From IMG/VR virus record IMGVR_UViG_2531839622_000028: DNA of 39,198 nucleotides; one strand, 5' to 3'. Positions within the stretch are counted from its first letter, which is position 1, and every line of letters begins with the position of its first letter. A model generated the notes under the pieces. The model worked only from the letters and a program-made list of their open reading frames with translations. It did no database searches and was not told the DNA's origin. Origin of the DNA: a virus. Lineage: Duplodnaviria; Heunggongvirae; Uroviricota; Caudoviricetes. Position numbers and translations under genes: made by a program. Shown here in pieces: positions 2,879-38,153 of the stretch.

Positions 2879-4927
2879 TTATGCCGCAGGGGTATTAACC
2901 TCAAGGACAACGCTCTCAAAAGACACGCCATAAGTTGCCCCTTTGGTGACATCTGTCAGTGTCAGCGTATCTTTGGCAGGGGAAAGTGCATCTTTCACCA
3001 TCTGGAATGCCTGGCCCGGAGTGCCATCCAGCACAGGCGTTACCTGGGCACTTCCCGCCGTAAACTTCAGGACAAGTGTATGCCACTGGTTATTGTAGGC
3101 TCCAAATGATCCCAGTTTCGTATTCCCCCCTGTTTTATGGTGCATCAGATTTAACTGGCCGCCTGTTGTCTGGAGATAATACGCCATCAGGAACGGTGTG
3201 CCTGTACCACTCATGGTTACACCTTCCGGGACCGTATCGGTGTGGAGGTAAATACCCAGAGCAAACTGGCCTTCTTTTACTTCACCTGACAGACGGAATT
3301 TACAGGTCAACTGACCACCATGCTTCAGAAGTTCACCGGCTGCATCAGTTCCATGGGTAAGCGTCCAGGTTTTTCCGCTTTGTTTGGATACGGTCAACGC
3401 TTTACCTTCGTCCGTCAGCTGGATTGTACCATCTGTAATTTTCCAGCCCTGAGCCGGGGCTTCTCCTGCTGATGCTTTAAGTGAAAGCAGCGTACGGAGT
3501 GACGGGGATGTCGGATGGGGGGACTCACTGCCTCCTGGCTGACTACCTGTCGGCGCTTCCGGTTTCCCACCCGGCGCGGGCTGAGGCAGGGCTTCACCAT
3601 CAGGGGCCACACCGGCAATAAATGCAGAGGTCAGACCTGCATATTTAAGAATTGCTGATGCAAAACGATCTGAGACCAGAAAACGGCGCGCCCAGGAGCT
3701 AAAATGGGTTGCCCTGGATGCTGTTGTCCAGTTGCCATCTCCCCGTGATTCCGCACCATAATACCCGGCAGAAGCGATATCCGGGTCGTGCTCCGGCAGG
3801 TTGGTCGCGGTTTTATTACCGAACTCATCGTGCATCAGTGGAACAAAGTGAATGTTCTCGGAAGCCCGGTTTTTATATCCGCTATAAATGGTTTCATATG
3901 CCGCCGGGTTCTTCTCTTTCCAGTCATAGGTTGTGTCACCACATAACCACGGCACACTGTCTGATGAACCACCAATACACTGACCGGAGAAAGCACCAAG
4001 ATCCGCACGGAATTTTTTCACCATCGCAGTAAACTGGGCACCATGCTGGGCCGGGGTCGCTTTAAGGTCTCCTTCCCCCTGAATCCATACGACAGATAAC
4101 AGCACATTCTTTGGATTCGCCTCAAGTGCCGCTTTAGTTCGACTGACAAGATCCTGATACAGTGGGGTATCCACTCCCCAGCGTAGTGACGCCTCGGCTG
4201 CACCACTTGCCGGATCGAATGAGCCAACTGCGCCGGTTGTAAAAGCAGAGCCGCCACGGGCACAGGGAACCAGTAAAATCCCGGCATCAGCAGGAATCAC
4301 CGGTAATACTTTTTTCGCAATATGAAGTCCCTGCCCCACACAACCATACTGCCCTTTTTTCAGGTCTGCTTTTGGATGGTTCAGCAGACTCATATTCTGA
4401 ACATCATGAAGGCAGTGATCTGCTGGAATGATTTCATTGTATTTGCAGGGAATACCTCCGGGGGTTTGTGTATTCCTGCGTGCCAGCTGCATAATACGTG
4501 GATCAGGACGATCATAAGAATCCGGAAGGGGCAACCCTTCACCATAAGATGAAGCATTGGACTGGCCGGCTATAACAATCACGTAATACCAGGAAGGGGA
4601 GCTGGAAGCCGTTTCATTTCCTGCCGGACGGGTATGTGTTTCTGCATTATCCCAGTCTGACGGTTCAGTAGTACCGGCAACATCAGCACTTAACGGAATG
4701 ACAGCACCAATACCCGCTCCGGTAATTTCCACGTTCGGATCACCGGATACTGGCCTTACCCACAGGCAATCCTGTGTATTAAAACTGATGAGACAGTCAG
4801 CAAATGTCATTCCTCCTTTTGTTTCGGCCGGAGGAAAGGGAGCCTCAAGAAATGCCGCTGTACCACCGGAAACTTTAACAGTAAAGTTTCCGGGCATTGA
4901 TGATAGTTGAACCCATTTGGACGTCAT
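2879..4927 (-). CDS. Modular carbohydrate esterase, SASA/SGNH type, resembling prophage-encoded sialate O-acetylesterases (NanS-p-like), with a C-terminal beta-rich putative sugar-binding domain
   Basis: 682-aa ORF; GQSN motif at residues 121-124 (nt 4556-4567) and a W-x-QGE-x-D block (VVWIQGEGD) typical of the SASA family; Pro/Gly-rich linker then about 180 C-terminal residues; no N-terminal signal peptide visible. Confidence 0.6.
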   Translation of the reverse strand: MTSKWVQLSSMPGNFTVKVSGGTAAFLEAPFPPAETKGGMTFADCLISFNTQDCLWVRPVSGDPNVEITGAGIGAVIPLSADVAGTTEPSDWDNAETHTRPAGNETASSSPSWYYVIVIAGQSNASSYGEGLPLPDSYDRPDPRIMQLARRNTQTPGGIPCKYNEIIPADHCLHDVQNMSLLNHPKADLKKGQYGCVGQGLHIAKKVLPVIPADAGILLVPCARGGSAFTTGAVGSFDPASGAAEASLRWGVDTPLYQDLVSRTKAALEANPKNVLLSVVWIQGEGDLKATPAQHGAQFTAMVKKFRADLGAFSGQCIGGSSDSVPWLCGDTTYDWKEKNPAAYETIYSGYKNRASENIHFVPLMHDEFGNKTATNLPEHDPDIASAGYYGAESRGDGNWTTASRATHFSSWARRFLVSDRFASAILKYAGLTSAFIAGVAPDGEALPQPAPGGKPEAPTGSQPGGSESPHPTSPSLRTLLSLKASAGEAPAQGWKITDGTIQLTDEGKALTVSKQSGKTWTLTHGTDAAGELLKHGGQLTCKFRLSGEVKEGQFALGIYLHTDTVPEGVTMSGTGTPFLMAYYLQTTGGQLNLMHHKTGGNTKLGSFGAYNNQWHTLVLKFTAGSAQVTPVLDGTPGQAFQMVKDALSPAKDTLTLTDVTKGATYGVSFESVVLEVNTPAA

Positions 4928-32535: not shown

Positions 32536-33078
32536 TTATTCCTCCGTCAGCGCCACATATTCAGAATGTTTAATCTCCTGGCATTCTTCAGGAATACCCC
32601 CTTTTATTTCCCTGCCATAAGCGCCTACTTTAAACACCACGCACAGGGCATCACGGGAGAGCGACGGGGTCCACCAGGAGTCCATGTTAAACATGGAGGG
32701 GATTCTCATTACCCCCAGCTTTTCACAGAGCCAGACAAGGAAATCAGGACGCTTTCTTAACTCGCGTTCAGCGGCTTCAATCATTGCGGCAATCGCCGGT
32801 CCTTCAGGGCATGACTCATCAGGTCTGGCAATAAAGCACGGTCCGTCCCCGATAAAAGCCACATCATCGCGCTTACGCCAGCCCGCAGGCAGAGCACCAG
32901 AAAAATAAAACTCACTGATTACGTCCATGGCAAACGGCTTTAAGCGCAATCCGGCAGCGCCTGTATTTTTCAGTAATGCCCGAAGAATACTGTTGCGTAG
33001 CGGTAAAACAGTCTGTTGATATTTGGTGAAATATTTATTTGTCTGCACACGGTCTAATTTGAAATAAAAATATGCCAT
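32536..33078 (-). CDS. Hypothetical early protein (180 aa)
   Basis: ORF downstream of gam in the early operon. Confidence 0.45.
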   Translation of the reverse strand: MAYFYFKLDRVQTNKYFTKYQQTVLPLRNSILRALLKNTGAAGLRLKPFAMDVISEFYFSGALPAGWRKRDDVAFIGDGPCFIARPDESCPEGPAIAAMIEAAERELRKRPDFLVWLCEKLGVMRIPSMFNMDSWWTPSLSRDALCVVFKVGAYGREIKGGIPEECQEIKHSEYVALTEE

Positions 33079-33175
33079 ATATCCTGTTCCTTATTTTCAG
33101 TTTACAGGCGCAGGCAGTCCCCTGACGCGAGCGCCATACTTAAAACGATGTGATATTTAAAGATTTAATGCGGTG

Positions 33176-33706
33176 TTATTTATTCAGTCCGGCGTCCTGT
33201 TCAAAAGGCTCGACATAAAAACTTTCAGCGCCTTTATTCACCTTAATACCGGCAATGCCTTTCACTGCATCCGGCTCCGCCAGGACCGCTTCCTTGTTCA
33301 CTTCCTCTTTCGTGCGGATGAATCGCTCAAGCCCCATACGGCGCAGCATTTCAATCACACCTTCCACATCACGGCTGACGCTGCATGATGGATTTCCCAG
33401 CCGCCATGATACTGTTCCGGTGGTCAGATTGGCTGTTTTGGTTTTGCCGCCGTTCGTCAGCTCATCGCGGTTGGTTTTGCACCAGTCCTGAATCCCCTTA
33501 AAAAGCACTTTGATTTCTTTTTTAAGGTTTTCAATCTGCGGCGTATAACGGGCGGTGATTTCTGCCACTTCATCATTCATCGCCGTTTCCAGCCGCAGCG
33601 CCTCTCGCTGAATATCGCCCAGGGTACGGATATCGCGGCTGACTTCTTCGCGGGTCTGCGGTGCAGCCTCGGCTGCGGCCTTTAATTTTGTAACACGTTT
33701 AGCCAT
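33176..33706 (-). CDS. gam: Host-nuclease inhibitor Gam (Mu Gam / Ku-like DNA end-binding protein)
   Basis: 176-aa ORF; size, composition and position in the early region fit Mu Gam. Confidence 0.8.
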   Translation of the reverse strand: MAKRVTKLKAAAEAAPQTREEVSRDIRTLGDIQREALRLETAMNDEVAEITARYTPQIENLKKEIKVLFKGIQDWCKTNRDELTNGGKTKTANLTTGTVSWRLGNPSCSVSRDVEGVIEMLRRMGLERFIRTKEEVNKEAVLAEPDAVKGIAGIKVNKGAESFYVEPFEQDAGLNK

Positions 33707-33717
33707 TTTGTTTTTCC

Positions 33718-34011
33718 TTATTGCAGTGTGCCTGATGCTTTATGCACGCGGTGGCGTTTAATGATGGCATCCGCCCCAAAAGCCTGTACAGATGCCTGAA
33801 ATTCCGCTGAGAGAAACTGAATAATTTCAGGACTGTGATACTGGAGAATACTTGCATAAACGTCACAGAGTGACGTCGGCCTGTTATTCGTATCACGTTC
33901 TGTTTTTACATCCACACCAATCTTTTCATGCACTTCAACACAGTCATTGCCTGCCGGTTTTTCGTCATGCGAAACATGCTTAAATTCAAAAATAACGCGT
34001 ACTTTGCTCAT
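33718..34011 (-). CDS. Hypothetical early protein, paralogue 2 of a tandem pair
   Basis: Start set at the ATG at 34009-34011 (MSKVRVIFEFKHVSHDE...); N-terminus paralogous to the upstream gene. Confidence 0.5.
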   Translation of the reverse strand: MSKVRVIFEFKHVSHDEKPAGNDCVEVHEKIGVDVKTERDTNNRPTSLCDVYASILQYHSPEIIQFLSAEFQASVQAFGADAIIKRHRVHKASGTLQ

Positions 34012-34015
34012 GGAA

Positions 34016-34288
34016 TTACCCCTGCTGATTAAATTCATTACCTTTAATAACCCCGGAACGCATGCTCATATCTTTCATGAGCGCACTGGCTTTCATTGCC
34101 ACAAGTTCAGCAAAGTCTCTGCTTTCCGCGAGCATAACCACCCCAAAAATCATGGCGGGTCCATCACCTTTCTGCTTTATCCCGGTTGAACGTATGTCCA
34201 GACTTACCCCCATGCGCACTGTTCCATCAGCGTTTTTATGGATAACGTGCTCCTTGTATTCGAAAATAATGCGTACGACTTTACTCAT
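34016..34288 (-). CDS. Hypothetical early protein, paralogue 1 of a tandem pair
   Basis: 90-aa ORF (MSKVVRIIFEYKEHVIHK...); GAGGA upstream. Confidence 0.5.
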   Translation of the reverse strand: MSKVVRIIFEYKEHVIHKNADGTVRMGVSLDIRSTGIKQKGDGPAMIFGVVMLAESRDFAELVAMKASALMKDMSMRSGVIKGNEFNQQG

Positions 34289-34566
34289 CCTCTGGTCCTC
34301 GTTCTGTTTGGATAACTGACCCGGCGTCTGACCTCACGGCAGAACCGAATCATGGCATTAAAGGCTTCTTCCTCCGTCACCGCTTCCGGTATCCCCGGAA
34401 CCAGTAACTGCTCCTGTTCATCACGTCCATGACGCGCCATAACCTCAATCACATGCCGTACCGTGGCAGGCTTTCCGGCAACTATCGGCAATGCACCTTC
34501 CGGCAGGACGTAACCAAACTCAATAAGACCACTCGACCACGCCCATGCAATGAGATTTTTTTTCAC
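34285..34566 (-). CDS. Hypothetical early protein (93 aa)
   Basis: ORF with stop/start overlap with neighbours. Confidence 0.45.
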   Translation of the reverse strand: MKKNLIAWAWSSGLIEFGYVLPEGALPIVAGKPATVRHVIEVMARHGRDEQEQLLVPGIPEAVTEEEAFNAMIRFCREVRRRVSYPNRTRTRG

Positions 34567-34567
34567 C

Positions 34568-34834
34568 TCACACCTCCCAGTAAACCGTGCAGCCGCTGAT
34601 GCGGGTGGCCTTCACACGGCGGCGCAGGCCGTTGGTCTGTATGGTGATTTCAATTTCACCGGTTCCCTGCACGTTGCCTACCGGCGGCGTGGTTTTCAGT
34701 GCAAAACGTTGCGGATAGCGCTTACTGCGTTCCAGTACCGCACCGGCAAGTTCGGTCAGACGGCGCGCGCTGTTCAGGGAGTCGAATAAATTCATTTTGT
34801 TACCGCAGGATTGCATATTCATATAACACCTCAT
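34568..34834 (-). CDS. Hypothetical early protein (88 aa; true start may be an internal Met)
   Basis: ORF in the early operon. Confidence 0.4.
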   Translation of the reverse strand: MRCYMNMQSCGNKMNLFDSLNSARRLTELAGAVLERSKRYPQRFALKTTPPVGNVQGTGEIEITIQTNGLRRRVKATRISGCTVYWEV

Positions 34835-35062
34835 TTAGCTGACTTGTTTCGCACCAACAGAACGGCATATTCCGCTGTAAACGTCTGTCGCACCTTCGCG
34901 ATCAAGTCCGGCAGATATCACCATTCGTGTGCGGTCATTAAATTCAAAAAGAAAATCGCCACATTCTTTATTTTCGGCCAGTGAAATCACCTTCACGTTA
35001 TCGAAATTAACCAGGTAAAAGCGTCCGTAAATATCAGGAATATTAAATACCGCCATAATCAC
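34835..35062 (-). CDS. Hypothetical small early protein at the position of Mu kil
   Basis: 75-aa ORF immediately downstream of B with overlapping junction; function inferred from position only. Confidence 0.35.
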   Translation of the reverse strand: MIMAVFNIPDIYGRFYLVNFDNVKVISLAENKECGDFLFEFNDRTRMVISAGLDREGATDVYSGICRSVGAKQVS

Positions 35063-35991
35063 ACCTGTGAGAGTAATTCAGGGTTGGTATAAACCTCTTT
35101 AAAGGCCGCATTAATATGTTTTTCTGTCAGCGCCGCGCCTTCACCGCTGGCGGTGAGCCACGCCTGGTTAAGCGTATGTGTCAGAACGCGTAACGCTCCC
35201 GGCTTTTCAGCGATAGCCTGCATGACGGCCAGCTCGGCCTCACCACTGATCCCCCACGCCCTGGCAATGGCCAGCACATCCGCCTTTTTGGCCTTGCGAA
35301 GTTGTTTTGTACGGGCAAGACGGCTGAACAGGCGCGATAAATCATCAAAGGCGCGGCGTCCACCTTTAAACAATCCGCGCGGGTTACCAATAAGCACCAT
35401 CCCGATCCCCGTGGCGTCCTGAATTGCCCGGAGTTGCTCCAGACCGTCAATACCAAGATGATCCGCCTCATCCACAATCACCAGTCCACGCGTTCCCATC
35501 AGGCGACGGCGGATGGCGCGGGATAATGCCCCTTTGTTCGCGCGGGTGTAATCAATCCCCAGCGCATCGGCCAGCTCCAGCAGACACTCCGTGACGCTGG
35601 AGTGCGCGGGTGACAGGGTGATCATCCAGGTGTTTGGTTGCTCCTGGCAGTAATTACGGGCAGTGGCCGTTTTACCCACACCCGGTACGCCCACAATAAC
35701 GTTAATACAGCCCATCAGACGAACCGCCTGAAACAGTGCGCGCAGCTCCTGGACTGTCTGCGTTTCCACAAACTGCGGCGGTTCCGGCAGTGCGCTTTGT
35801 TTATTCCAGTTCTCATACCAGGAACGCAGGGAAGCAGCCACAGCAGCGTTATCGCCTTTATATTTTCCCTTACGGAAAGCCGATAATGTGCCGTCGGAAA
35901 TTCCCGCCTCTCTGGCGATGGCATACTGCGTCAGTACGCCGCCATCAATAAGTTCATCAATGGTCTTGATTACATCGTTAATATCAGTCAT
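35059..35991 (-). CDS. B: Transposition ATPase (MuB-like, AAA+)
   Basis: 310-aa ORF; N-terminal HTH-like region, Walker A GVPGVGKT, Walker B-like LVIVDEADHL; downstream of transposase. Confidence 0.9.
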   Translation of the reverse strand: MTDINDVIKTIDELIDGGVLTQYAIAREAGISDGTLSAFRKGKYKGDNAAVAASLRSWYENWNKQSALPEPPQFVETQTVQELRALFQAVRLMGCINVIVGVPGVGKTATARNYCQEQPNTWMITLSPAHSSVTECLLELADALGIDYTRANKGALSRAIRRRLMGTRGLVIVDEADHLGIDGLEQLRAIQDATGIGMVLIGNPRGLFKGGRRAFDDLSRLFSRLARTKQLRKAKKADVLAIARAWGISGEAELAVMQAIAEKPGALRVLTHTLNQAWLTASGEGAALTEKHINAAFKEVYTNPELLSQV

Positions 35992-36062: not shown

Positions 36063-38153
36063 TCAGGCCAGCGGGTCATTTTCTTTTAATTTCGCTTCCA
36101 GCAACTGCAATCCCCGCTGGAAATTACGCTCGTATTCTTCATCAGGTTCATCGTCAGCGACCGGTTGCTGAACGGTCACCGTATTACCCACAGGGCGGTA
36201 TATGTTTTCCAGCCAGGGCTCCTGCGGCTTGTGCTCCAGCACGTTGACAACCTCATCCTCGGCATCACGGATTTTTTCCTCTGCGCGTTTACGCATGCCT
36301 TTAAGGCGTTGCTGCTGTTTGTAGTATTCCGCGCTAACCGGGAAGGCTTCGCGTTTATTACCGTCCCATACCGCCTCGCAAATCACGCTGCCATCCAGGC
36401 GACGTACGGTAATTCGTTCGGCATCATGAATGTCATAGCTGATAAGCACCTTACGACCATGCTCGTCACGCAGCTCGGGCGCGTAGTAAATATTATTCAG
36501 CCAGCGTATTTCACAGCGTCTTACAGGGCGTTCCACCATCGGCCGGAACATATCCCGCAGCTCAACATCGGACAGCCATTCAATTTCCGTGTCCTCTTCC
36601 GCCAGGCGTTTTTTTCTGAACTCCGCCGGGCTGTAATGCTTGCCGTTCGGCTTCACCGGTAATTCATCGTGCGGCCGGTTGTTGTACCACTCAACACCGT
36701 CACGAATGGCATCAATCAGTTCAGACCAGGACGGTAAATCACGCATCGCTGACTGCTGCCGGGCGTTCAGCCGTTTGCCCTGTTGCAGGGCAGTAAATGC
36801 CGAGCGTAAATCGCGGTTGGTTTTGCGTAACGTCTCGCGATCTGCACCTTTCCCGAAATAGGTGCGGTATTTACGGGCTATGCGCATCGGTAATGTGCGG
36901 TTAAGCCGTTCGATAATGCCTCGTCCCTGCGGATTACCGGCAATCCCGGTCGGGTGATTAATCCCCAGTCGCGGCAGTATCCCCACAACCTCCTTATCCA
37001 GGATGTCGGCGGTTTCCCCGGAGCCGTTATCCGAGTAATACAGAAACGGTTTGCCGTGATGGCGAATGCCGTGCTGTATGGCACCGGCTACGGCGAAAAC
37101 ATTTTCAGCCAGGTCAAGGCTCCAGCCCACCACAAAGCGCGTGCCACCGTCGATAACAAAGGTCACTTCCGGTGCAAATGGCCGACCGTGAACCGGGTGT
37201 GCGCATTTCAGCTTCATGCCGTGACCGTCACCAATCCAGACATAATTCACCGGCATTCTGGACCAGTCGCGGCGCGTGAATCCCTCAAGCTGGCGGTATT
37301 CACTGCCGGTCACCCGGCCTTTTTGTTTCACCACTTCCGGCAGTTTCTTCATTGCGCGGCGAATGGTGTCATAAGACGGCATGATATCGAGCATATAAGG
37401 CTCATCAGCGTGCCGGTGCTGCCATTCAGCGACAAAATCCTCGTAAGCCTCGGTCATTGGTCGGCCGTTTGACTGGCGATACTGCGCCAGAAATTCGGGC
37501 AGCCAGTTAATATCTTCGGCTTTTATTTCCTGGCGCTTACCCGGTGCCAGTAAAAGCAGGCGTTCAGCGGCGTTCTGCGCCTTGTTAAAGGCCGCAATCC
37601 AGCGTTTCAGCGTTATTTCACTCAACGCACGGCTGTTTCCCTTTTTGGCGTTCGCCGTCTCAACCATTGCCACAATGCGCTCGTCCAGTTGCGAACGTGC
37701 CAGGTTGTCAACGATAAACCGGATAGCTTTCGCACAGCTGAAACCGGGTTGTTGCGCGACTTTCATCACTTCGCTGACGATCGCAATTCGTGCATCAGCC
37801 ACCTGGCGCTGGTTTTCAGTCAGGGCATTAAGGCGTTCAACCATCAGTTGTGGTGATCCGCGATATGCCTCCACCGCATCAACCACGGCAGGCGAGCGTC
37901 TGGCCTTTGTCACCACCGGAGCCGGTGATTCATCAGCTTTTTGCGTCATCAGTTGAAGGGCATAACGTTCACGCAATACTTGTTGCGCGCCAGAAGGCAA
38001 ACAATCGATATTAAATTCGATTGCTTTTGTCCCCTTACGTTTGCGTAACATGGCTGCATTTCCCGCAGCTGCTTTTGTGAGTCGATGGCGAATGTTATGT
38101 TCCATCATTGGTAAATCAGGAAGACCAACACATTCTTTTGCTGTTACCCACAT
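36063..38153 (-). CDS. A: DDE transposase (MuA-like)
   Basis: 696-aa ORF; N-terminus MWVTAKECVGLPDLP... resembles the MuA DNA-binding domain as recalled; acidic C-terminal tail; follows ner. Confidence 0.9.
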   Translation of the reverse strand: MWVTAKECVGLPDLPMMEHNIRHRLTKAAAGNAAMLRKRKGTKAIEFNIDCLPSGAQQVLRERYALQLMTQKADESPAPVVTKARRSPAVVDAVEAYRGSPQLMVERLNALTENQRQVADARIAIVSEVMKVAQQPGFSCAKAIRFIVDNLARSQLDERIVAMVETANAKKGNSRALSEITLKRWIAAFNKAQNAAERLLLLAPGKRQEIKAEDINWLPEFLAQYRQSNGRPMTEAYEDFVAEWQHRHADEPYMLDIMPSYDTIRRAMKKLPEVVKQKGRVTGSEYRQLEGFTRRDWSRMPVNYVWIGDGHGMKLKCAHPVHGRPFAPEVTFVIDGGTRFVVGWSLDLAENVFAVAGAIQHGIRHHGKPFLYYSDNGSGETADILDKEVVGILPRLGINHPTGIAGNPQGRGIIERLNRTLPMRIARKYRTYFGKGADRETLRKTNRDLRSAFTALQQGKRLNARQQSAMRDLPSWSELIDAIRDGVEWYNNRPHDELPVKPNGKHYSPAEFRKKRLAEEDTEIEWLSDVELRDMFRPMVERPVRRCEIRWLNNIYYAPELRDEHGRKVLISYDIHDAERITVRRLDGSVICEAVWDGNKREAFPVSAEYYKQQQRLKGMRKRAEEKIRDAEDEVVNVLEHKPQEPWLENIYRPVGNTVTVQQPVADDEPDEEYERNFQRGLQLLEAKLKENDPLA

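Follow-up and report, generated by a model that had tools for sequence, protein, structure and literature searches.

Variable accessory slots are the usual location of anti-defence and host-takeover genes. In Mu-like phages of Pseudomonas, the anti-CRISPR loci of the JBD30 and D3112 type offer a case: a fixed slot with conserved flanks, in which otherwise near-identical phages carry very different small proteins, the occupants belonging to unrelated families, lying in the late region and being accompanied by an aca regulator. The present work concerns two small early genes, ORF90 and ORF97 (ORF, open reading frame), that lie side by side between kil and gam in a Mu-like transposable Escherichia coli prophage, which is read on the minus strand of the window (the whole stretch of 39,198 nucleotides that was analysed, IMG/VR record IMGVR_UViG_2531839622_000028). 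Their locus is like the JBD30 and D3112 slots in that a fixed place between conserved genes holds very different small proteins. It differs from them in that the occupants appear, by comparison, to be homologous alleles of one fold and stand in the early operon; an anti-defence or host-interaction role would fit both that early accessory location and the hypervariability. The likeness to Mu Gam and to host-nuclease inhibitors is one of position, these being neighbouring early genes of the same operon. Membership of ORF90 and ORF97 in the Gam family (PF07352) was rejected, as neither protein has sequence or fold similarity to Gam, and we found nothing in the literature on either gene. The ORF90/ORF97 slot is an uncharacterised instance of a familiar phage feature, the hypervariable accessory early-gene slot.

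ORF90 (34016-34288, minus strand; phrog_4107, RefSeq WP_000049432) encodes 90 amino acids beginning MSKVVRIIFEYKEHV, and ORF97 (33718-34011, minus strand; phrog_2230, RefSeq WP_000049304) encodes 97 amino acids beginning MSKVRVIFEFKHV; RefSeq carries the same two coding sequences with identical starts, both labelled 'hypothetical protein'. An initial annotation, made from the sequence alone, had singled them out as adjacent early genes with near-identical starts, and the coordinates, strand and peptides all agree with this. When the starts of the products are compared (MSKVVRIIFEYKEHVIH in ORF90 and MSKVRVIFEFKHVSH in ORF97), BLASTP aligns the N-terminal 17 residues only, with 12 of the 17 identical (expectation value, E, 9e-4), and at the DNA level ~33 of the first ~36 nucleotides are identical besides one 3-nucleotide indel, with background similarity beyond. 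The two copies of the shared stretch are the 5′ 36 nucleotides of ORF90 (34253-34288, minus strand; MSKVVRIIFEYK), a conserved N-terminal β-strand segment, and the 5′ 33 nucleotides of ORF97 (33979-34011, minus strand), which read MSKVRVIFEFK. A degenerate DNA pattern search with the back-translated motif MSK(V)VR[VI]IFE[FY] had matches in 42 contigs of IMG/VR and in 14 from metagenomes; in most of them two matches stand ~277 nucleotides apart, that is, the same gene pair. All matches checked fall in ORF90 or ORF97, all loci checked belong to this prophage lineage, and no third type of C-terminus carrying the shared N-terminus was found by this search in the IMG/VR or the metagenome collection. 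A chance match of the two N-termini is ruled out, the motif being confined to ORF90 and ORF97 wherever it was checked. In one E. coli contig the pair has been fused in frame: protein P0036 consists of ORF90 residues 1-49 and ORF97 residues 80-97, and the position of the join, at a shared 'FG' (...AMIFG / ...QAFG), marks it as a deletion between the two paralogs.

Beyond the shared start, the initial annotation took the two proteins to diverge completely, as one N-terminal module on unrelated C-termini. This is true of the pairwise BLAST comparison only, whereas comparison of profiles gives homology over ~78 columns, in effect the full length. Likewise, its statement that no known family could be recognised holds for Pfam, NCBIfam and PADLOC (defence proteins), none of which had a match for either protein, but not for PHROGs: ORF97 matches the phrog_2230 profile with E 1.3e-40 (its residues 3-97 cover positions 1-88 of the 89 in the profile) and ORF90 the phrog_4107 profile with E 1.1e-61 (its residues 1-90 cover all 90 positions). 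Single-sequence, word-indexed homolog searches with both proteins returned E. coli proteins only. The relatives in Salmonella and Serratia were reached because an exhaustive HMMER search was used instead; with the ORF97 alignment, run against 1.84 billion representatives, it gave full-length relatives of 93-98 amino acids at E 5e-7 to 6e-4. The ORF97 profile search collected 160 proteins in well over 100 distinct clusters at 90% identity, those with a source name being mostly from Salmonella enterica, with Serratia and Klebsiella oxytoca also present, and these clusters provide candidate natural alleles for defence-inhibition screens. The remote ORF97 homologs in Salmonella, Serratia and Klebsiella show 24-38% identity and all belong to phrog_2230.

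The link between ORF90 and this family emerged as the ORF97 alignment was deepened. Against a shallow ORF97 alignment, hhalign matched ORF90 over 33 columns; against deeper ones it did so over 77-78 columns (Prob 86-90%, E 5e-6 to 1.5e-6), the best comparison, of the deep ORF97 profile with the ORF90 profile, giving Prob 90% and E 1.5e-6 over 78 columns. When the N-terminal 13-19 residues were trimmed from both, the register was kept over 54 columns (E ~1e-4), and the trimmed score of 26.1 was reached by none of 200 column shuffles (mean 9.6, standard deviation 1.9, maximum 15.0). The joint alignment has landmarks common to both proteins, namely the N-terminal V-x-V/I-I-F strand, the Gly of the hairpin turn, a G-P ahead of the helix and another Gly close to position 79. 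Overall identity between ORF90 and ORF97 is ~16%. With every other member of the family ORF90 shares 12-21% of its residues, as against the 25-38% that ORF97 shares with the Salmonella alleles. Judged from these profiles, ORF90 and ORF97 are very distant full-length paralogs within one family of roughly 90-100-residue proteins, in agreement with their initial description as tandem paralogs, and phrog_2230 and phrog_4107, which stand separately in PHROGs with no function attached, would be linked here as distant homologs.

A third branch of the family may possibly be represented by Mu gp7 (E6, Mu_7, AAF01086; phrog_10252), an uncharacterised protein of similar length (87 amino acids) from Mu's early accessory genes, in the operon region between kil and gam, whose N-terminus reads MAKVIIEIK. 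It gives a weak full-length match to phrog_2230 (E 0.009, residues 1-78) and aligns in the same register within the family alignment, but the link is not significant by hhalign (Prob <1%) or BLASTP (E 7), and in Mu another gene stands directly before gam; the assignment is accordingly a tentative one. In this way two, perhaps three, PHROG families that had no function are joined into one candidate small-fold family with a fixed genomic slot.

The slot itself behaves as an exchangeable hypervariable cassette, and nowhere else in the early operon of the Mu-like prophages of E. coli and Salmonella does diversity peak as sharply. Between two Salmonella prophages (L259 and L261), amino-acid identity is 89% for kil, 91% for a 136-residue protein gene, 94% for the 93-residue protein gene, 95% for DUF5420 and 98% for Gp11_C, but 38% for the slot gene, which is of the ORF97 family. 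In E. coli, ORF97 falls into two allele classes that are ~60% identical and are flanked by ORF90 at 92-99% and Gam at 96-100%; a recombinant ORF97 allele (P0046) was found, and the combinations of alleles with the 93-residue gene present or deleted are all observed. The rapid evolution that the initial annotation had read into the gene pair is thus evident in both hosts. Salmonella alleles of the ORF97 family have a further peculiarity, in that the codons for the Gly-Gly of the hairpin turn sit in a G8 or G7 homopolymer (3066-3073 in L261, ~4066-4073 in a third prophage, L255, and ~3067-3073 in L259). In ~20 protein clusters from Salmonella the called product lacks the N-terminus and starts MKEKRFRGGVE..., consistent with a +1 G frameshift, and other alleles have an extra Gly. 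The G7-G8 tract could reflect slipped-strand on/off switching or homopolymer sequencing error.

The border of the cassette falls within the slot gene. In sliding windows, nucleotide identity collapses from >90% to 40-60% ~30-40 nucleotides inside the slot gene, both in Salmonella and between the E. coli classes, and the first ~12 codons are therefore part of the conserved flank; residues 1-12 are also the most conserved segment of the family, with a column entropy of 0.75 bits versus 1.4-2.2 elsewhere. The sharp drop is one of several observations that speak for regarding the N-terminal identity as purely a DNA-level recombination joint, due to a phage mosaic boundary or a recent gene conversion, between unrelated genes that share no common ancestry or fold. 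Between the ORF97 allele classes the synonymous divergence (dS) of codons 1-12 is 0.27, compared with ~1.1-1.2 further in (substitution rates here and below are crude Nei-Gojobori counts on E. coli alleles only). In two of the rare prophages that lack ORF90 (L064 and L254), the ATG of ORF97 follows directly on the stretch that otherwise leads into ORF90. Moreover, the N-terminus of ORF90 agrees with that of the co-resident ORF97 at 10 of 12 positions, as against ~7 of 12 between ORF97 and its Salmonella homologs, despite overall identities of 16% versus 25-33%. Nevertheless, this explanation seems to us very unlikely. The homology survives N-terminal trimming in the same register, with the score of 26.1 above the best of the shuffles, and the N-terminal peptide is kept across genera that differ from one another at synonymous positions. 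Among ORF90 alleles, codons 1-13 show a ratio of nonsynonymous to synonymous rates (dN/dS) of only 0.04 at a dS of 0.35. It is because of this low ratio and of the synonymous differences between genera that the constraint on the N-terminus can be placed at the protein level. Recombination probably contributes to the N-terminal similarity, but only as part of the explanation. We read the shared N-terminus as playing two parts, that of the first core strand, conserved within a predicted fold that evolves quickly, and that of the 5′ arm of an exchangeable cassette. The closer match between the co-residents (10 of 12) than to Salmonella (~7 of 12) suggests homogenisation between the 5′ ends of ORF90 and ORF97, or an origin by recombination within this segment.

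The distribution of single and double copies, which the initial annotation had proposed to follow across related prophages, separates E. coli from the other genera. In Mu-like prophages of Salmonella, Klebsiella and Serratia, kil is followed by, usually, a homolog of the 93-residue gene, one gene of the ORF97 family, and gam or a DUF3164 gene. Every locus examined in these three genera has one ORF97-family copy and none has an ORF90-like gene; ORF90 was not encountered outside E. coli. Within the E. coli lineage the pair is complete in all but one of the 36 distinct kil-to-gam sequences, and ORF97 alone, directly after kil, was seen in an IMG/VR contig (L064/L218), a metagenome contig (L254) and strain CI5. 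In E. coli it is ORF90 that is coupled to the 93-residue gene through ATGA, as the single slot gene is in Salmonella, and the junction to gam has been retained by ORF97; both traces would be expected after a tandem doubling of the slot. A recent local duplication of ORF97, with ORF90 as a young redundant duplicate that is decaying or drifting to loss, would leave the two ancestral junctions in the same way, and it would fit two neighbouring genes of like orientation and size, one of which is missing from rare prophages. We consider such a recent event improbable. With 12-21% identity to all members, ORF90 is more distant from ORF97 than are the Salmonella, Serratia and Klebsiella alleles; it is also intact in 35 of the 36 locus versions with a dN/dS of 0.28, and disrupted copies are rare and mostly in low-quality contigs. 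The extreme divergence of ORF90 leads us to infer that the pair in E. coli arose by the stacking of a very different allele and not by a recent duplication of ORF97. The reading of one copy as a frameshifted remnant is ruled out, both genes being intact, present together in 35 of 36 versions and constrained (dN/dS 0.28 for ORF90 and 0.27-0.40 for ORF97).

Further afield, hmmsearch found no ORF90 or ORF97 homologs in Gam-anchored loci of 42 distant genomes and ~40 distant IMG/VR contigs, in which Gam is 28-59% identical, which restricts the family to the enterobacterial branch. A tblastn search met with no isolated phage that has a Salmonella-type allele. The neighbours of the slot vary as well. 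The 93-residue gene, of which L206, L217, L209 and L211 carry variants, is cut to its last 22 codons in 15 of the 36 distinct locus versions and is missing from the single-copy variants, and it is conserved in the Salmonella and Klebsiella loci. At the position of gam, many Salmonella and Klebsiella Mu-like prophages carry a gene for a 212-residue DUF3164 (PF11363) protein (for example 4303-4941 in L255, 3303-3941 in L261 and 3303-3941 in L263), and otherwise similar prophages (L259 and L258) have gam there, so that gam and DUF3164 appear to be alternative cassettes at one position. The adjacency to gam, which the initial annotation took to fit a host-interaction role, is real in the window and yet does not define the slot, since DUF3164 follows it in Salmonella and Klebsiella. 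In the Serratia locus L258, a gap of 177 nucleotides with no called gene (3824-4000) separates kil from the ORF97-family gene; it holds a short Cys-rich frame (...KPCPFCGDTQLG...CQTCGAQ...) whose product looks like a small zinc-ribbon peptide.

ORF90 and ORF97 are real genes under purifying selection, and they are less constrained than the core genes around them. Their dN/dS values of 0.28 and 0.27-0.40, respectively, compare with 0.10 for B, 0.09 for kil, 0.10 for gam and 0.13 for the 93-residue gene. Within the slot proteins, the ratio is 0.13-0.31 in the helices and 0.3-0.5 in the hairpin and loop, and rises to ~0.9-1.0 in the tail.

AlphaFold2 models ORF97, from an alignment of 41 sequences, with a mean predicted local distance difference test score (pLDDT) of 84.9 and a predicted template modelling score of 0.67. 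The model has a long β-hairpin (strands 4-21 and 24-39) followed by two helices (48-58 and 60-77); residues 80-97 make up a disordered tail. From its shallow alignment ORF90 is modelled with the same order of elements, but with a pLDDT of 53, too low for the model to serve; by the profile alignment, the two proteins appear to share one small fold. Foldseek comparison of the ORF97 model with the PDB and BFVD gave no match better than E 0.09, and a sequence search of the PDB was empty. In the model a two-stranded sheet lies under two helices, an arrangement that would likely pair with a second copy.

How these proteins act can be approached from their setting and their variability. The account that we favour, and which we hold to be somewhat likelier right than wrong, is that ORF90 and ORF97 are paralogous functional early genes of a hypervariable slot, with an N-terminus that serves as core strand and cassette arm, and with a binding role. 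Two very different versions of the slot gene would have been stacked in tandem in the E. coli lineage, and the 5′ ends of both copies would have been kept or made alike by recombination or conversion. On this account the paralogs look alike only at their N-termini because the first ~12 codons would be at once core strand and 5′ homology arm, and the N-terminal repeat would still be explained as conserved core strand and cassette boundary if the function were to prove an ordinary one. The proteins themselves may be small binding or inhibitor proteins, probably dimeric via the hairpin, whose variable surfaces (the outer half of the hairpin, the loop and the tail) would track a variable target of the host or a competitor, such as a defence or DNA-processing factor; two copies could widen the range of targets or form a heterodimer. 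That ORF90 and ORF97 bind or inhibit a variable host or competitor factor, much as accessory early genes like kil and gam do, is our best guess, to which we give rather less than an even chance. It is made because of their early-operon position among host-directed genes and their cassette-like hypervariability, and because the predicted fold is small and probably oligomeric, with a conserved core and a variable surface.

A more detailed version of this idea, which we think unlikely although worth stating, would make phrog_2230 and phrog_4107, and possibly Mu gp7, a polymorphic family of small proteins that inhibit a variable factor of host immunity or DNA processing. The N-terminal strand would then be core or dimer interface as well as the recombination arm by which Mu-like prophages exchange specificities; with its tandem pair, possibly a heterodimer, the E. 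coli lineage would have two of these, and the G7-G8 tract could act as an on/off switch in Salmonella.

The main functional alternative is that the proteins, instead of engaging the host or its defences, serve the phage's own early programme, as accessories of transposition or replication or in connection with the function of Gam or DUF3164, and that their variability is simply co-variation with the neighbouring cassette. The slot does always lie directly upstream of gam or DUF3164, the variable region reaches into the next gene where these two alternate, and translational coupling ties the genes into the A-B-kil-gam operon. On the other hand, the E. coli ORF97 classes are 60% identical beside Gam proteins that are 96-100% identical, so there is no co-variation with Gam, and the core transposition genes are far more conserved (dN/dS ~0.1). 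Like recent duplication, this explanation strikes us as improbable.

Several points weigh against the account in terms of one paralogous family with a binding role. The structure of ORF90 is poorly predicted (pLDDT 53), and 'same fold' rests on the profile alignment, in which the hhalign Prob is 90% and not >95%, the ORF90 profile being shallow (effective number of sequences ~1.4). Neither protein is strongly acidic, contrary to the DNA-mimic type of anti-restriction protein. Finally, no segment reached a dN/dS >1 in the Nei-Gojobori counts on E. coli alleles. With the tail near 1 and the hairpin at 0.3-0.5, an arms race is not required, and the diversity could come from cassette exchange and relaxed constraint instead. 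DNA mimicry of the Ocr or ArdA type was itself considered and is ruled out, the isoelectric points being 9.45 for ORF90, 6.58 for ORF97 and 5.1-7.9 for members of the family.

In the window, the slot belongs to an early operon that lies entirely on the minus strand. It comprises transposase A (36063-38153), B (35059-35991), a gene for a 75-residue protein between B and kil, the kil homolog (34568-34822; phrog_2679, with PF26843 in related loci), which forms the left flank of the accessory slot, the 93-residue gene upstream of ORF90 (34285-34566; phrog_1518, which PHROGs labels 'host nuclease inhibitor'), the two slot genes, and gam (33176-33706; PF07352, E 1.5e-41), which lies directly downstream of ORF97 and forms the right flank. 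The ATG of ORF90 overlaps the stop codon of the 93-residue gene (ATGA), four nucleotides separate the ORF90 stop from the ORF97 start, and 11 nucleotides separate the ORF97 stop from the gam start. Promoter- or terminator-like sites were not found on the minus strand of 33100-35100, and the few matches to such sites on the plus strand are no more numerous than expected by chance. Because of the overlap and the short gaps, with no such sites on the minus strand, ORF90 and ORF97 are taken to be early genes that share a transcript with A, B, kil and gam and whose translation is coupled to that of the adjacent genes. Antisense frames across the region had no family matches.

The same element recurs among sequenced E. 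coli. The 801 nucleotides at 33600-34400 are 100% identical to chromosomal prophages in Shiga-toxigenic and other E. coli; the stretch is present in 232 of 5,426 complete E. coli genomes, and in 226 of the 232 at least 80% of the query, spanning both ORF90 and ORF97, is covered. The Mu-like element has also been inserted inside Shiga toxin (Stx)-converting prophages (LC727881.1 69370-71370 and LC727895.1 10367-12542, annotated 'region of the inserted Bacteriophage Mu-like phage') and occurs on E. coli plasmids (e.g. AP026747.1 61303-61593), which fits transposition into other mobile elements. Downstream of gam lies a gene for a 180-residue protein (32536-33078, minus strand; phrog_2260) that has no Pfam match of its own; its product is ~30% identical over ~190 residues to a Salmonella DUF5420 protein (L259 4483-5061), and by this similarity it is probably a divergent DUF5420 member.
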